Position numbers and translations under genes: made by a program. 64,000 nt of DNA from contig CALHLD010000026.1 in NCBI GenBank assembly GCA_938034445.1, positions 562 to 64,561 of the forward strand, read 5' to 3'. Shown here piece by piece: positions 14,968 to 37,257 of the stretch (positions within the stretch are counted from its first letter, which is position 1; the number at the start of each line of letters is the position of its first letter). Source of the DNA: an uncultured archaeon (lineage in GTDB: Archaea > Thermoproteota > Nitrososphaeria > JACIWG01). The notes below the pieces were generated by a model, which saw only the letters and a list, made by a program, of their open reading frames with translations, searched no databases and had not been told where the DNA came from.

Positions 14968-15444
14968 GTGCGAAGACTATATAATGATAAAGATCTTCAG
15001 GAATACATTAAATTAAATAAACTTGAAGCTGAAATCCTATATTTTAAGGAGCATACTATGACTGTTGAATCAGCAGCAGAAAAATTAAAAGTGCCTAAAG
15101 AATATATTATAAAAAGTATTTTGGTCTTAAATGAAAGAAGTGAACCCTTTCTAATAATATTAAATGGTGATAGAAAAGTATCGTTTCAAAAGGTTATGAA
15201 AATTACTAATTCAGAAAACATCAGGTTAGCTAAAGCGAAAGAAGTTAAGGAAATTCTAGGATATGAGATAGGGAGTGTGCCGCCAATTTTTCATAAAAAT
15301 AGTGTAAAAGTGTTTATTGACGAACGTGTCCTTAAATACGATTACGTTATTGGTGGTGGAGGTTCAACTCACTCTCTCCTTAAAATTAGGCCAAAGGATG
15401 TCCTTAATCTAACGAAAGCGCTAGTTTATGATATTAGTGAATAA
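14968..15444 (+). CDS. YbaK/ProX-family aminoacyl-tRNA deacylase domain protein
   Basis: 158 aa. The conserved lysine context and the GSVPPIFH region fit the YbaK editing domain. Its last 8 codons form direct repeat copy A. Confidence 0.7.
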   Translation: MRRLYNDKDLQEYIKLNKLEAEILYFKEHTMTVESAAEKLKVPKEYIIKSILVLNERSEPFLIILNGDRKVSFQKVMKITNSENIRLAKAKEVKEILGYEIGSVPPIFHKNSVKVFIDERVLKYDYVIGGGGSTHSLLKIRPKDVLNLTKALVYDISE

Positions 15445-15449
15445 AAAAT
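15420..15449. repeat. direct repeat copy A (GCTAGTTTATGATATTAGTGAATAAAAAAT), equal to the 3' end and stop codon of the ybaK-like gene
   Basis: Matches 18523-18552 at 27 of 29 positions, with extended weaker similarity upstream. Both copies read in frame as xLVYDI(S/G)E-stop. Confidence 0.65.
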
Positions 15450-15972
15450 TTAATGCTTTATTGCTTAATTTAGTTTCCGATTGGCTGTTAATAAAAGATA
15501 CATCAAGAAAGAAATAGAACAGTGAAGCTATTGCAACCAAAGTACAATTATCAGATTTGTATTAATTTCATCTACAATGATGTTTAGAGAAAGTTTGAAC
15601 TGTTTATTTAAATGAGGCTGCAGCAATGCTTGTTGGAATAGCAGCTAGGGCCAAGAGCGGTCATTTTAACCGCTAGGGAGAAGGATGGAAAAAAGAGGTT
15701 AAGGCTTAACTGTGGCATGCTTATAAGCGAACATATTAACACTTCCGGAAGGTCTGGTTGGTCAGTGTTTAGTATATGCGAGCCATAGTAAAAGTCAAGA
15801 ACCTCTATGTGCGATGGCTAAGTGACTAAGCTCAAATTGGCTAGTCAAAGCCCAGAGTTTGATTAGAACTAGGGTTCTACAAATAAAAATTGGGCATTTT
15901 TAGAGAAAGTGGTGTTTGAAGTAACTGTATGGCGAATGAGATACATTTATATAACGCCGTTATATAATTATA

Positions 15973-16395
15973 TTGGGTGATGAAATGCCAAAAATATCCA
16001 TAATTGTGGCTTCAGAAAAACTGGATAAGCTATTTCCGGCGGCAACACTGGCCACAACAGCAGCCGTTATGGGCTGGGAATCAGAGATGTTCTTTACATT
16101 CTGGGGTCTCTTAGCCCTAAAAAAGGGTTATGAGCCAAAGGAAGTTAGCTCAGATTACAAAAGCTATGAAGATGATTTAAGGAGAGCAATCAGCTCAGGA
16201 GCTATGCCAAGCTGGCTAGAAATATTGGAGCAGGGGAAGAAGACTGGAAAATTGAAGATTTACGCTTGTTCCACAACGATGAATTTTCTTGGTGTGAAGA
16301 CTGAAGACCTAGTAGCATATGTTGATGAGGTTGTTGGTGCCGCGTCCTTTTTAAGTAAAGCGAAAGATTCAGATATTAATCTCTTCATATCATAA
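15973..16395 (+). CDS. DsrE/DsrF-like sulfur-relay family protein
   Basis: 140 aa, probable true start MPKISII. KISIIVASEKLDKLFPAATLATTAAVMGWESEMFFTFWGL and a C-terminal Cys (IYACSTTM) fit the DsrE fold. Confidence 0.65.
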   Translation: MGDEMPKISIIVASEKLDKLFPAATLATTAAVMGWESEMFFTFWGLLALKKGYEPKEVSSDYKSYEDDLRRAISSGAMPSWLEILEQGKKTGKLKIYACSTTMNFLGVKTEDLVAYVDEVVGAASFLSKAKDSDINLFIS

Positions 16396-16400
16396 TATAG

Positions 16401-16640
16401 GTGGTAACTTTGGAAGCTAATATAGTTGTTGATGCGCGAAATAAGTCTTGCCCAGGCCCACTTTTGGCATTAACTAAAGCAGTTATGAAGGCCAGTCCAG
16501 GTCAGATAATTATGCTCCTGTCAACCGATCCAGGTGCCCCTCAAGATATTAGGGAATGGGCCTCACATGCGGGTCATAAGGTTCTGAATGTTGAAAAGAT
16601 GGGTGAAACATATCGGATATACTTAGAGGTTTTGGGTTGA
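16401..16640 (+). CDS. tusA: TusA-like sulfur-carrier protein (CPxP motif)
   Basis: 79 aa. DARNKSCPGPLLALTKAV is the TusA active-site CPxP. Lies 5 nt after the DsrE-like gene. Confidence 0.8.
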   Translation: MVTLEANIVVDARNKSCPGPLLALTKAVMKASPGQIIMLLSTDPGAPQDIREWASHAGHKVLNVEKMGETYRIYLEVLG

Positions 16641-16965
16641 CCTATAGTGACCTATCAGAACCGGCATACTGGTTAACACCGTGTGTCCCGGATAGGCCCT
16701 GACAAGAGGATTAAGAATCCGGTCAGGTTAACCTCGGATAAAACGGGTGAACGATTGAGGAAATCATAAGCAAATGTTGAGCACTTTTTAATCTAATAGA
16801 CGATAATGTAGCCATACGCTGACTCCCTTCATAATGCTTCTATAAGCTCGGTATATAGCGCCTTGGTCACTAAGTCTATGAAAAAATTAAAGCTTCAAAA
16901 CTAAACGATATAATCAAATCTTTTCAATTATGAAAATCATTAAATATAATCATTTCAATTTTAAG

Positions 16966-17400
16966 TCAAATTTTAAGTTCTGTTAAAGTACGTTTTATCT
17001 CGTTCACAACAAATTTAGCGTTATCAATTATTTCTTTGGCTTTTTCTCGAGTATAATATTCCATTGGAGTCAACCATTTGCCTCCAACTTTTAGAGGATA
17101 ACGTGCATACACCACCTCCCTTTGGATCATGCCTCCCTTCTCAATCAATTGAATGTATCTTTCTTCCCTAAGCAGCTCTGGTTTCACTCTTCTGATAACC
17201 GCTGCTAAGCCGCTTATCGCTCTATGATTTTTTGCCTCATTTCCTCCAAGTTTTATGATTAAGGCGTTTGCTATACTTTCAACAGCTAAAGAAGCATGAA
17301 AAACGGCAGAATCATATTCTCCGGTTTTAAAACGTTTTTCCGCCCTAGCCAAATTCACTTCAGAAACCCTAATTAAAACATCTATTTTGTTTTCAACCAT
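16966..17400 (-). CDS. HEPN-domain protein (toxin partner of the minimal nucleotidyltransferase)
   Basis: 144 aa, all-helical. Overlaps the upstream MNT gene by 19 nt, the classic HEPN/MNT pair arrangement. Confidence 0.65.
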   Translation of the reverse strand: MVENKIDVLIRVSEVNLARAEKRFKTGEYDSAVFHASLAVESIANALIIKLGGNEAKNHRAISGLAAVIRRVKPELLREERYIQLIEKGGMIQREVVYARYPLKVGGKWLTPMEYYTREKAKEIIDNAKFVVNEIKRTLTELKI

Positions 17401-18014
17401 ATTCTTGTCTCACTTAAATATTCATGGCTGCATCTAATCTCTTCCACCCTACTATGCAGTATTCTGGCTAGCTTGCCCGTCTTATCAACTAAAACTTCAA
17501 AGCCTTCTGCGATACCATATATAATGCCGCCTTCACTTGAATAAACATTATCGAGGAAATCTTCTTCTGTCAAAATTAATGGTTCAATCATAATGTGATA
17601 TTCTCTTTCAAGCTCTAAAATTTTGGGCATAATCTTCGCCTTAGCCTTTTCGAGTGGTTTATCGACAACGATAATCATGTCCAAATCACTAAGCTCATTA
17701 GCCCTTTTCTGAGTTACACTACCAAAAAGAACGATGGTCTTAACAATAGGCAGTTTTGAAAGTTTATCGGACATTCGTTTAGCTTGGAAGCGCATATATA
17801 AACTTAATTCATAAGTGGAAACATCTAACTTGTGGGCTAAACTATACCATTTACCATCCTTTTTAATAACTCCTTTACTTTCTAATTCTCTAAGCTTAAA
17901 AGTCAACCATCTATCACTTAATCCAGTCTCAGTCTTCAATTCTTTGTAAGTATGTCTTCCATGATTCAAGACCAGGAACACTTTTCCTTCAGGAGTTAAA
18001 GAGACTATTTCCAT
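17382..18014 (-). CDS. minimal nucleotidyltransferase (Pol-beta fold) with N-terminal wHTH; antitoxin partner of HEPN
   Basis: 210 aa. VLFGSVTQKRANELSDLDMIIVV carries the GS...D.D nucleotidyltransferase motif. The N-terminal 60 aa are wHTH-like. Confidence 0.75.
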   Translation of the reverse strand: MEIVSLTPEGKVFLVLNHGRHTYKELKTETGLSDRWLTFKLRELESKGVIKKDGKWYSLAHKLDVSTYELSLYMRFQAKRMSDKLSKLPIVKTIVLFGSVTQKRANELSDLDMIIVVDKPLEKAKAKIMPKILELEREYHIMIEPLILTEEDFLDNVYSSEGGIIYGIAEGFEVLVDKTGKLARILHSRVEEIRCSHEYLSETRIWLKTK

Positions 18015-18522
18015 CGTTATTCACCAATTAAATATAATACACCAAATAATAAATACTTTACTAAGTAAAGTTAGACTGAATCTTGACCGAGATTCAACTA
18101 AACCTTGAAATTATAACTTCATGGTTATTAAAAAAATTAAATGAGCAAATCTTATCTGATTTCAGGTTTCTATAAGATCGGCCCAAAAGGACTTTTGCAT
18201 TCTGTTAAGAAGTATGGTGGTTTAAATGTTGACATTCTCCTCGGCTTAAGTCGGGAGATTCTCGGTTCTTTGTCCTTAGGGGTTCATCATACCGAGTTCG
18301 GGCTGTGTCAAATCAGCCCATAGCATGAGCGTATAACCTGTGCCCCGCTCGCCCGAACCACCTCCCCCACTTCAGCCTGAAGCCTTATTCGGGCTCTTGG
18401 ACACCCAGACTACATTCGAGCGACACGCTCAAAATATGAGCAGAAAATTCTATATTTAAATTTATCGACAGTTCATTCCAGAGCTAAAGCTCTAGGCTTT
18501 CTTGTTGAATTTTTGTAAAGGA

Positions 18523-18552
18523 GCTAGTTTATGATATAGGTGAATAAAAAAA
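18523..18552. repeat. direct repeat copy B (GCTAGTTTATGATATAGGTGAATAAAAAAA), an orphan copy of the ybaK-like 3' end
   Basis: See copy A. Sits 3.1 kb downstream with no ybaK body attached. Confidence 0.65.
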
Positions 18553-18566
18553 TAAAATTGGGGGGC

Positions 18567-29604: not shown

Positions 29605-29669
29605 ATTTCCTCGCCACTTTAAAAGGCTTTATATTTTATTAAATCACTTTAACTAAATTTTATTAATGA

Positions 29670-29740
29670 GGTGGGGAGGGGATTTGAACCCCTGTATATC
29701 CGCTCTGCAGGCGGACTCGTAGCCGCTCCGACACCCCACC
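29670..29740 (-). tRNA. tRNA-Cys (anticodon GCA), CCA not encoded
   Basis: The reverse complement folds as a cloverleaf. 7-bp acceptor stem GGUGGGG/CCCCACC. Anticodon stem UCCGC/GCGGA with loop CUGCAGA. 5-nt variable loop. T-arm AGGGG-UUCAAAU-CCCCU. Confidence 0.85.
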
Positions 29741-35899: not shown

Positions 35900-36097
35900 T
35901 TGTTAATTGCATTAAATGTGGAAACAAAAGAAAAACTGTTAACAACAAGCGAGTTTGCAAAAACCTTTAACGTTACAAGACATGCTGTAGCTAAATGGAT
36001 TAGAGAAGGAAGAATTAACGCAATTAAACTACCCGGTGGAAGATACAGGATACCCGAATCTGAGGTTGAGAAGTTATGGAAGTCGTTAAAGCGGTAG
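35900..36097 (+). CDS. excisionase/MerR-like HTH protein of the IS (possibly the frameshifted N-terminal HTH of TnpB)
   Basis: 65 aa. TSEFAKTFNVTRHAVAKWIREGRINAIKLPGGRYRIPESEV is HTH_17-like. Overlaps the tnpB start by 22 nt in another frame. Confidence 0.5.
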   Translation: MLIALNVETKEKLLTTSEFAKTFNVTRHAVAKWIREGRINAIKLPGGRYRIPESEVEKLWKSLKR

Positions 36098-37257
36098 TTT
36101 TCAAGCACGACGCCGATGTTAAGCCGTTGCTTGAAGCATTCAACCAGATGGTCAATGAATGCATGGAATATGCTTTGAGATACGGAGTCAACTCGCCGAT
36201 GAAGCTTGAGAAGGCATTGTACGATGAATTTAAACAGAAGTATGGGTTGGCAACACATTACTGCATATCGGCCTGTAGAGTAGCTTGTTCCGCTTTAAAG
36301 TCTTGGAGAAGGCTTGTGAAGAAGGGTAGAGCTGACAAAAATAAGCCTCCAGTCTTCAAGACATTAGCGATGAGGCTTCAGAAGGGGCTTATGAGGTTTA
36401 AAGAGGATAAAATAGTTGTAACGGTAAAACCACGTCAATGGGTTGAAATCCCCCTGATAATCGGCTCGTACCAGGCTCAATTCGTTGAGGCTTGGAGAAA
36501 GGGGGAGCTTAAACTTGGTGAAATAACGCTTTTAGAGGATAAAGCAATAGCGACTTTCAAGAAAGAGGTTCAAGAGGTTGCTCCTAAAGGCTATGCTTCA
36601 ATAGACGTCAACCTGATGAGCCTAGATGTTTTAAAGACAAACGGTGAATCGTTAGCATACAAGAAAACAGATTTGAAGAAGCTCTACGGAATAAGAGTCC
36701 ACTACTTCAAGAAGCGTAGGAAAATTCAGAGATTATCAAAATATAAGCCGAAGACCTCTAAACGCCTCATGGAAAAATACTCTAAACGCGAAAAGAGGAG
36801 GATAGACGACATCCTTCATAAGATTACGGCAAATATTGTTAGAGAACTTGTTAAGGAAGGTATTTCACCAGTCTTTGAAAAGCTTAAAGGATTGAATTAC
36901 AACGCTACGAGGAATCACCATGCGAAGCGTAAAAATCGCAAAGTTTCATCGTTGCCATATTGGAAAATTCAAAGATTCATAGAGTATAAGATGGCCTGGC
37001 ACGGCTATAAAACTCATTATGTTAACGCAAAAAACACAAGCAAGACTTGCCCAAGATGCGGGAGTCTGTCCCAAGCCAAGGGGCAAGTCTACGAATGTAA
37101 ACATTGCGGGTATGAAGCTGACAGGCACTTTATCGCATGCGTGAACATACTCAATATGTGGGGAACTGGGTTCTCCCCGAAAGCCCTCAATGAGCTAATC
37201 GAGAGGGAAGAGTTAGGTGGGAATGAAAGTAACAGATTACTACATATTCCTACTTAA
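36076..37257 (+). CDS. tnpB: TnpB (IS605 OrfB) RuvC-like RNA-guided-endonuclease-family transposon protein
   Basis: 393 aa. OrfB_IS605 core. RuvC-like region. C-terminal zinc ribbon CPRCG...CKHCG. Confidence 0.85.
   Translation: MEVVKAVVFKHDADVKPLLEAFNQMVNECMEYALRYGVNSPMKLEKALYDEFKQKYGLATHYCISACRVACSALKSWRRLVKKGRADKNKPPVFKTLAMRLQKGLMRFKEDKIVVTVKPRQWVEIPLIIGSYQAQFVEAWRKGELKLGEITLLEDKAIATFKKEVQEVAPKGYASIDVNLMSLDVLKTNGESLAYKKTDLKKLYGIRVHYFKKRRKIQRLSKYKPKTSKRLMEKYSKREKRRIDDILHKITANIVRELVKEGISPVFEKLKGLNYNATRNHHAKRKNRKVSSLPYWKIQRFIEYKMAWHGYKTHYVNAKNTSKTCPRCGSLSQAKGQVYECKHCGYEADRHFIACVNILNMWGTGFSPKALNELIEREELGGNESNRLLHIPT

Follow-up and report, generated by a model that had tools for sequence, protein, structure and literature searches.

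A G+C-rich hairpin block at an archaeal island boundary as the probable core of a gene-less IS200/IS605 element with a HgcC-type ωRNA scaffold

Introduction

Palindrome-associated transposable elements (PATEs) are gene-less derivatives of IS200/IS605 insertion sequences known from haloarchaea and from Geobacillus stearothermophilus (PMC4615843; PMC10055086). One of them, VNG_R0052 of Halobacterium, is transcribed (PMC4615843), and PATEs have been described that encode TnpB guide RNAs (ωRNAs) used in trans, so that both this class of element and the trans use of its ωRNAs with TnpB are already part of the literature (PMC10055086, PMC4615843). Here, we analyzed a 64,000-nucleotide stretch of DNA from an uncultured archaeon of the Nitrososphaeria lineage JACIWG01 (contig CALHLD010000026.1, positions 562 to 64,561; hereafter the window, whose own numbering is used throughout). 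A first-pass annotation had singled out a G+C-rich non-coding block at 18220–18450 as a dense run of stem-loops, possibly a structured non-coding RNA (ncRNA) or att-site architecture. With a probability of about 90%, this block forms the G+C-rich core of a non-autonomous IS200/IS605 element of the PATE type, 286 nt long and located on the minus strand (18514→18229), with a HgcC-type ωRNA scaffold and a promoter of its own. The assignment is based on homology, boundaries, motif geometry and structural covariation, and on the finding of the element in unrelated contexts but not in syntenic relatives.

Transcripts from the 3′ end of tnpB genes now go by the name of TnpB guide RNA, or ωRNA, and the HgcC family was first found by a G+C screen of the kind that the first-pass annotation invoked. 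HgcC has the right-end (RE)-like tetraloop motif of IS1341-type tnpB 3′-end transcripts and PATE-derived RNAs (PMC4615843). In the ωRNA layout, the scaffold stops at the right-end boundary of the element and the next 16–20 nt form the guide (PMC10055086). At the DNA level, the cleavage sites of IS608 from Helicobacter pylori are TTAC (C_L) and TCAA (C_R) and its left guide is AAAG (G_L) (PMC3201880, PMC5934647), while GAAT serves as G_R (PMC5934647); the spacing between TTAC and the left hairpin is 19 nt, and the region defined for TnpA consists of the hairpin and the cleavage site (PMC3201880).

Results and Discussion

A 286-nt element shared by otherwise unrelated loci

The same full-length deletion derivative was found at 70–73% identity in three metagenomic loci, namely L063 and L073, which represent one site, and L075, which represents another (L-numbers denote the genome and metagenome loci or contigs compared in this analysis). 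In blastn searches, the window matched L075 with 73% identity over 303 nt (E = 6e-44) and L063 and L073 with 70–71% (E = 2e-31 and 9e-29). This similarity was limited to 18223/18229–18519, no protein was shared, and the contexts were unrelated, the 286 nt being all that these loci have in common with the window. The L063, L073 and L075 copies are flanked by TTTAC and the sequences beyond TCAA differ. The element was also bounded independently, as synteny with the native relative L095 ends at 18525 and Bathyarchaeia-like homology, represented by L097, begins at 18225. It is missing at the syntenic locus of the relatives L089, L092 and L095. No matches were obtained in viral contigs (four pattern scans) or in plasmid and phage collections (blastn).

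The four tetranucleotides of IS608 recur here with the same sequence and placement, all on the minus strand. TTAC (18515–18518), assigned as C_L and as the TnpB target motif (TAM) by family comparison and by reference to IS608, belongs to the flank; among 14 related elements, it stands immediately before the left end in 12, the other two having TAAC or CTAC. AAAG (18497–18500; G_L) is located 5′ of the foot of the left-end hairpin, inside the AAGAAAGC motif conserved in left ends of the family. At the opposite end, alignment placed GAAT (18258–18261; G_R) 5′ of the right-end hairpin and TCAA (18229–18232; C_R) as the last 4 nt of the element; of the 21 right ends in the alignment, 18 have GAAT here, with GAAC instead in L063/L073 and GGAA in L053, and 20 terminate in TCAA. 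From these motif positions, the element therefore runs from 18514 to 18229 and comprises 286 nt of 47% G+C without target duplication: its flanks, ...CTCCTTTAC before and CATTTAAACC... after it, contain no repeat, and the same holds for L063 and L075. Subterminal imperfect palindromes are found at both ends, without terminal inverted repeats. No protein-coding gene lies between the ends, only a 24-codon tnpB remnant, and the open reading frames (ORFs) of the element had no Pfam match.

Besides the identical tetranucleotides, the window element shares with IS608 a left-end hairpin at 18–19 nt from the cleavage site (vs. 19 nt) and the lack of both terminal inverted repeats and target duplication. 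It differs in having neither tnpA nor tnpB, in its archaeal host and archaeal-type promoter, and in the position of TCAA, which is 3–4 nt from the foot of the long RE hairpin (approximately 9–10 nt from the foot of the inner stem) vs. 10 nt in IS608. As in PATEs, a left end (LE) and an RE are fused without a protein gene, the RE part would encode an ωRNA dependent on TnpB provided in trans, and TnpA would likewise have to be provided in trans for mobilisation. Unlike the described PATEs, however, the element is of another sequence family, found in thermophilic archaea and in archaea of sediments, and keeps its own B-recognition element (BRE) and TATA box, a 5′ hairpin and a G-rich middle module specific to the subfamily that it makes up with L063 and L075. 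Miniature inverted-repeat transposable elements (MITEs) derived from elements with terminal inverted repeats, such as SM1–SM4 of Sulfolobus, have terminal inverted repeats and target duplications, and REP/REPIN sequences depend on RAYT proteins. With these, the window element has in common that it is a short, non-autonomous, structured intergenic repeat, whereas its asymmetric ends, the lack of a duplication and the guide-RNA scaffold set it apart.

The left end retains a hairpin and a probable archaeal promoter

Every conserved part of the family's left end is present on the minus strand of the window: TTAC, AAAG, the hairpin, the TATA box and GAGCGTGTCGCTC. The consensus of full-length relatives reads TTAC, A(A/G)AA..GTCGCTAAGAAAG, hairpin, ATGAATT, ... 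GTCGATAAGTTTAAATAT (BRE/TATA), and a left-end hidden Markov model (HMM) whose training set did not include the window matched 18520–18465 on the minus strand (E = 1.2e-7). The left imperfect palindrome (IP_L, CTAGAGC-TTTA-GCTCTGG; 18478–18495) begins 19 nt past the cleavage site, or 18 nt if counted to the consensus hairpin foot, and its stem covaries, reading CTACGGT/ACCGTGG in L063 and L075.

Downstream of this hairpin, a BRE/TATA promoter, GTCGATAAATTTAAATATAG, was recognized by conservation at 18450–18469 (TATA at 18460–18453). In the left ends of relatives, GTCGATAAG-TTTAAATA is kept approximately 25–40 nt 5′ of the start codon of tnpA or tnpB, and the corresponding sequence in the window probably works as the promoter of the element. 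The hairpin GAGCGTGTCGCTC (18430–18418), the fourth of those listed in the first-pass annotation, is located at the predicted transcription start, about 26 nt past the TATA centre. Its equivalent, GAGCGAGTCGCT, stands directly 5′ of the tnpB ATG in L031, L081, L087 and L061, is kept in L006, L063 and L075, and follows the promoter in tnpB-only elements.

Such an outward-reading promoter, together with the structured RNA, might instead matter as a promoter or leader donated in cis to the MNT-HEPN toxin-antitoxin operon, which lies on the same strand 215 nt downstream. The orientation fits, the distance is short (TATA at 18460–18453 and MNT start codon at 18014), and there is no strong terminator past the right end. 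Nevertheless, we consider this role unlikely, as the Bathyarchaeia contigs L096 and L097 keep a native MNT upstream region that lacks the element, and the window still has this region (18225–18015).

Between the hairpin and the TATA box, the left ends of L022, L024, L046, L064, L074 and L081 have a conserved G-rich motif, AGGGGAGGTGGG(Y)GGG, which is complementary to the C-rich CCAACCUCCCC of the ωRNA of a sister subfamily. The subfamily of the window has a similar G-rich motif in its middle module instead (18369–18358). Pairing of the G-rich motif with CCAACCUCCCC, either between LE and RE or within the RNA, is possible on the basis of this complementarity.

The right end carries a tnpB remnant and a covarying ωRNA scaffold

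Full-length TnpB proteins of related loci matched 18350–18228 in tblastn searches (identity up to 58–70%, E down to 3e-8). The minus strand at 18276–18350 encodes the last 24 codons of tnpB, ERGTGYTLMLWADLTQPELGMMNP, followed by the stop codon (the equivalent tail in L042 is KRAMGYTSIAGADLTQPEFGMMKGHA plus stop), and no further tnpB sequence exists upstream of this remnant in the window element. The surrounding 122 nt (18229–18350, minus strand) were assigned by Rfam, blastn and covariation as an ωRNA scaffold of the HgcC type together with the right end. In relatives with an intact tnpB, the scaffold overlaps the 3′ end of the gene and stops at the right-end boundary, and the 24 codons of the window lie in the same register. 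This is also the arrangement of the ISDra2 and ISGst TnpB-ωRNA systems, in which the scaffold overlaps the tnpB 3′ end and stops at the RE boundary, the flank provides the guide and the TAM is the target motif; unlike in those, the nuclease gene is deleted from the window element, which is left with the scaffold of about 122 nt. By analogy with this layout, the guide segment is predicted to be CAUUUAAACCACCAUACUUC, taken from the flank (18209–18228, minus strand).

A permissive Infernal scan with Rfam matched HgcC (RF00062) to 18321–18216 on the minus strand with 25.4 bits (E = 1e-3; gathering score 50 bits), and copies of the sister subfamily also scored below threshold (30–46 bits). The HgcC model likewise matched the 3′ ends of intact tnpB genes (L014, L024) and other gene-less copies (L002, L050). 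The locus resembles HgcC and the sense-overlapping transcripts (sotRNAs) of IS1341-type tnpB 3′ ends in being a G+C-rich RNA sequence in AT-rich archaea that starts with the same GGGCUG...CAGCCCGA hairpin, has at its end an RE hairpin with a UUNA-type loop, and finishes with GUCA(A/C). It departs from HgcC in its low score, in belonging to a subfamily that ends ...GAGUGUCAA rather than ...GGAGGUCAC, and in its central helix.

Blastn comparison of the window minus strand with nine tnpB-adjacent right ends gave 74–80% identity over 91–135 nt (E from 1e-12 to 4e-22). The RNAalifold consensus of 21 distinct right ends contained 30 pairs in six helices, 13 of them with compensatory change; paired cells amounted to 95.8%, vs. 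27–48% when the partners were slid, and none of 500 shuffles matched the covariation. Covariation in homologs, which the first-pass annotation had proposed as a check, was therewith found. The scaffold helices map to 18344–18322 (helix 1), 18319–18300 (helix 2), 18296–18261 (helix 3) and 18258–18236 (RE hairpin), all on the minus strand; as the search pattern prescribed helix 2, this helix is uninformative for covariation, unlike the others. A covariance-model match on the window (115 bits) was not used as evidence, because the window was part of the training alignment and the match is circular. The conserved helices could serve the RNA as ωRNA, the single-stranded DNA in recognition by TnpA, or both. 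The idea of a structured ncRNA thus holds for 18350–18229, about half of the block, on the minus strand and as part of a mobile element rather than as a free-standing cellular gene.

A free-standing or domesticated cellular small RNA (sRNA) gene of the HgcC type, with a host function and no transposon remnant, would also account for a conserved promoter of its own and for covarying helices. In Halobacterium, overexpression of PATE-derived and tnpB 3′ (sotRNA) transcripts results in a growth phenotype (PMC4615843), and gene-less derivatives recur, nearly always with the whole scaffold. However, the sequence is missing at the syntenic locus of the host's closest relatives, occurs in unrelated contexts where it is bounded by TTAC and TCAA, contains tnpB coding remnants and reaches no Rfam gathering score, and the sequence at the guide position already differs among the three known copies. 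Altogether, such a gene appears very unlikely, and the non-autonomous IS200/IS605 element is retained as the reading of the block.

Between the 5′ hairpin and the scaffold lies a G-rich middle module of 67 nt (18351–18417, minus strand), which was delimited by subfamily comparison, includes the nested hairpin of the first-pass annotation and is common only to the window, L063, L073 and L075. Two stems are kept in it, including the outer GCCCGAA/TTCGGGC, with two compensatory pairs each, whereas the inner hairpin (CTTCAG-c-CTGAAG) is not conserved. The observed covariation was reached in 19 of 500 shuffles, with three independent sequences, and the conservation of the two stems is therefore to be read as suggestive. 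Two coding origins were considered for these 67 nt, and neither could be established. A remnant of the tnpA N-terminus ("LVWCPK") showed no significant similarity, no support from L063 or L075 and no tblastn match, even if only 4–7 of 200 shuffles reached the score of the window in the comparison with the tnpA 5′ end; similarity to the tnpB 5′ end was not significant either.

Stem-loops and composition of the block

All four stem-loops that had been listed were found in the sequence, with positions correct to within 1 nt. GGGCTG-8-CAGCCC is at 18300–18319, as first placed; GAGCG-14-CGCTC at 18327–18350 has a loop of 14 nt and not 15; and GAGCG-aca-CGCTC is at 18418–18430, 1 nt away from the earlier position. 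GCCCGAA...TTCGGGC pairs 18351–18357 with 18388–18394 around CTTCAG-c-CTGAAG, an inner hairpin that is effectively 5 bp with a 3-nt loop because a 1-nt loop is impossible. Three conserved helices had been overlooked, at 18261–18296, at 18236–18258 (RE hairpin) and at 18478–18495 (LE hairpin).

The G+C content was indeed far above background, with 54% for 18216–18430 compared to 35.4% for the window, and this is the top value for any 215 nt in the 64 kb. With a minimum stem of 5 bp, six perfect hairpins were counted in the block vs. 2.1 ± 1.4 in dinucleotide shuffles (4 of 500 reached six), whereas 62 of 277 other 231-nt segments of this AT-rich sequence had as many. What is unusual about the run of hairpins is therefore its composition and helix stability, not its raw count. 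Folding with RNAfold, another of the checks proposed, gave z-scores of −3.3 for the plus and −1.35 for the minus strand, so that folding energy does not identify the strand.

At gathering thresholds, Rfam had no match at the locus and ARAGORN detected no tRNA or tmRNA there, the sole match at threshold in the window being a tRNA-Cys at 29668–29740. A known cellular structured RNA (tRNA, signal recognition particle RNA, RNase P RNA, sRNA or riboswitch) was rejected on these grounds, the sub-threshold HgcC match being the only outcome of the Rfam/Infernal check at the locus. A decayed gene, which the first-pass annotation had named as the alternative, explains part of the block through the 24 tnpB codons, with a remnant of an HMG-CoA reductase gene (hmgA) alongside. 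A bacterial promoter/terminator scan flagged the left-end palindrome; its models are bacterial and uninformative for an archaeon.

The element lies at the seam between native and foreign DNA

The island at whose right end the block had been placed proved to be real. It is a 3.06-kb insert (15454–18517) that is missing from syntenic relatives and has a 39-nt imperfect direct repeat at its flanks. In the closest relatives, the substrate-binding protein (SBP) and tRNA_edit genes are convergent neighbours (SBP 92%, 85% and 73% identical), at a spacing of 18–61 nt in L095, L089 and L092–L094 compared to 3.1 kb in the window. L095 aligns in two parts, to 21415–18525 and 15453–13382, with 32 nt matching both sides; this alignment and the adjacency of the two genes in relatives identify 15454–18517 as an insertion. 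The copies of the direct repeat (15415–15453 and 18518–18556, the right one on the plus strand) are 85% identical, and the right copy, which abuts TTAC, is a piece of the tRNA_edit gene (its 3′ end) that is decaying.

An att or recombination site of the island, with hairpins that bind its recombinase, would be compatible with a block that ends at most 4 nt from the right junction and with the direct repeat at the flanks. The repeat lies outside the block, however, and nothing of the block is repeated at the left end of the island, whose proteins (DsrE_2, TusA, HEPN and MNT, the last an NTP_transf_2 protein) include no integrase; moreover, L063 and L075 have the same 286 nt but no island. We regard this explanation as extremely improbable. 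Of the earlier proposal of a recombination site, what remains is that the ends of the element correspond to Y1 transposase sites.

The two sides of the element are of different origin. On the native side, the nearest named homologues of SBP are from Fervidicoccus fontis (62%) and from Fervidicoccaceae or Sulfolobales metagenome-assembled genomes (MAGs), which makes a Fervidicoccales-like crenarchaeon the probable host. On the other, the closest homologues of the MNT protein are from Bathyarchaeia (81%), and 18225–16978 shares 77–81% nucleotide identity with the Bathyarchaeia contigs L096 and L097, where the order is hmgA (divergent)-MNT-HEPN, which indicates horizontal acquisition. Homology to Bathyarchaeia hmgA also explained the 60-aa ORF that had been dismissed as low-complexity: its first ~29 codons (18141–18228, plus strand; flank only) are a Bathyarchaeia-like remnant of the N-terminus of HMG-CoA reductase (hmgA), MSKSYLISGFYKIGPKG... 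compared to MSKSSLISGFYKLSPKE... in L096, which is truncated at the right end of the element and from there runs into it. The element is thus located exactly between native DNA on the LE side, i.e., the tRNA_edit 3′ fragment, and the foreign block on the RE side, which starts 4 nt from the right end; the cleavage sites are within approximately 4–11 nt of the native/foreign breakpoints. An empty-site test with the 39-nt repeat inside the window showed homology that ends at the left end, with no significant continuation past the right end because the right flank is foreign hmgA DNA.

It is only for this position, exactly at the seam between native and horizontally acquired DNA, that the locus is notable. 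Recombination between copies, repair of a break at the end of the element and chance are all possible causes of the coincidence. Capture of the foreign DNA through IS200/IS605 ends, or through breaks made there, is improbable in our estimation; it could have proceeded by recombination between two PATEs, by repair of a break made by TnpA at the right end, or by repair of a break made by TnpB/ωRNA. If it did, gene-less guide-RNA elements would act as seams in the assembly of mosaic islands in archaea. As a related possibility, selection may be maintaining this subfamily, which has a promoter of its own and additional conserved 5′ stems, as a stand-alone gene for a guide RNA.

A second left-end-like hairpin at 15650–15690, which would make the island one large LE-to-RE transposon, was rejected: it was detected neither by the left-end HMM nor by the right-end covariance model, and no TCAA or hairpin is present at the left end of the island. 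In a relative with 85% identity (L090/L091), the SBP-tRNA_edit spacer contains a different insert (L090, 7792–8128; 337 nt, 43% G+C), which had no Rfam match and no similarity to any of the sequences compared; the spacer may hence be an insertion hot spot.

Partner proteins and proposed activity

Several observations weigh against this explanation of the block as a non-autonomous element. No cognate TnpB or Y1 TnpA is encoded within the 64-kb window, so that any activity would need proteins supplied in trans, and only one copy of the element is present in the 64 kb. The window copy does not reach the HgcC gathering score and keeps 26 of the 30 consensus pairs, compared to 30 of 30 in copies beside an intact tnpB, and TnpB proteins of this clade might need upstream ωRNA parts that were lost in the deletion. 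Finally, the flanks are of different evolutionary origin and TTAC is missing from the corresponding site of the hmgA homologues; the present position is therefore no simple canonical insertion.

The lone tnpB of the window (36076–37257, plus strand; 393 aa) encodes a protein with OrfB_IS605 and Cas12f1-like_TNB domains and belongs to another clade. It is unlikely to be the cognate nuclease, being approximately 33% identical to the family and having no TQPE tail and no matching right end. A small helix-turn-helix-like ORF ends near 36080, and the G+C-rich 3′ end of this tnpB (36993–37207) presumably holds an ωRNA of its own.

By our model, the gene-less element arose through deletion of the interior of an insertion sequence bearing tnpB, or tnpA and tnpB, which left in place the left end with its hairpin and BRE/TATA, the short 5′ hairpin, the G-rich module, 24 tnpB codons and the right end. 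Related full-length elements encode Y1_Tnp, and by analogy with IS608 a Y1 TnpA acting in trans would bind both subterminal hairpins on the single-stranded top strand; the cuts would be placed by pairing of AAAG with TTAC and of GAAT with TCAA, and the element would be excised as a single-stranded circle and reinserted 3′ of another TTAC. As for the RNA, transcription from the left-end promoter would begin near 18430 and give a product of approximately 200–220 nt, the 3′ 122 nt of which would be the ωRNA scaffold; a guide of about 16–20 nt, taken from the adjacent flank, would come after it. This RNA could be loaded by a TnpB of the "GAxLTQPE"-tailed clade, likewise provided in trans, which could then cut the empty TTAC-flanked site after excision, thus favouring retention of the element.

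Alternatively, the element may have the same ancestry and yet be an inert fossil, without usable guide RNA or mobility, that persists as neutral DNA at a recombination scar. The four broken pairs, compared to none in copies beside an intact tnpB, the lack of a cognate tnpA or tnpB within 64 kb, the decay of the adjacent duplicated gene fragment to 85% identity and the mixed origin of the flanks, as a result of which the guide would no longer match any "empty site", all agree with this. On the other hand, the promoter, both hairpins and all four cleavage/guide tetranucleotides are intact in the window copy, 26 pairs are kept (29 of 30 in L075, its gene-less sister copy), and the trans-acting proteins may be encoded elsewhere in the genome. 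We give a fossil a considerable chance, somewhat short of even. The broken pairs and the lack of partner genes mean that the element may be a decaying passenger, and the slight structural decay together with the chimeric flanks suggests that this copy may be a relic.

Relatives and family census

Related loci were collected by a scan of species-representative genomes with the hairpin pattern GGGCTGNNNTGACNCAGCCCGA, which yielded 58 loci (approximately 39 archaeal), and by a metagenome scan with the pattern CAGCCCGARYTNGGTAKGATGAA, which added 28. In the archaeal loci, the hairpin of the search pattern forms the in-frame 3′ end of ORFs of 353–489 aa and encodes a TnpB tail of the form ...NILKRAxGY...GA(A/V)(L/V)TQPE...; representative ORFs scored as OrfB_IS605 and Cas12f1-like_TNB, and some loci have a Y1_Tnp tnpA upstream. 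The lineages include Bathyarchaeia, Archaeoglobi, Nitrososphaerota, Odinarchaeota and a host resembling Fervidicoccus.

In a census with the left-end HMM, the distance from the LE to helix 2 was approximately 1.1 kb for elements with tnpB only, approximately 1.5 kb for those with tnpA and tnpB, and 126–283 nt for gene-less ones. The gene-less class has at least eight different junctions, and nearly all of its members keep the promoter and the whole scaffold. They thereby retain more of the right end than the region defined for IS608 TnpA, which is consistent with selection on the RNA, beyond the transposase sites.

Among the sister subfamily ending ...GGAGGTCAC, several near-identical gene-less copies were present per MAG, e.g., L002, L005, L016, L019, L048 and L057 in one Archaeoglobaceae MAG, and L010, L024, L025 and L030 in Ca. 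Alkanophaga volatiphilum; L002 scored 46 bits with HgcC. From these near-identical copies within single MAGs, PATEs of the sister subfamily can amplify.

The eye-catching, RNA-like patch of high G+C thus corresponds to a known type of selfish element, which avoids its annotation as a new ncRNA, an att site or a small protein. The family adds archaeal, thermophile-associated gene-less IS200/IS605 derivatives with a TnpB guide-RNA scaffold and the exact IS608 code to those described, and in no fewer than eight independent deletions the promoter has been kept along with the scaffold. In practical terms the value is modest: candidate thermostable genome editors can be seen in the compact scaffolds and their cognate TnpB proteins (~353–390 aa), which come from hot environments.

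In the Logan sample ERR9287632, two short contigs of a near-identical strain (L059 and L060; three single-nucleotide polymorphisms in MNT) end inside the block at 18290–18303. They overlap by 14 nt at the foot of helix 2, an overlap too short for the break to be taken as evidence of a repeat, and the break could have been induced by a repeat or by coverage.

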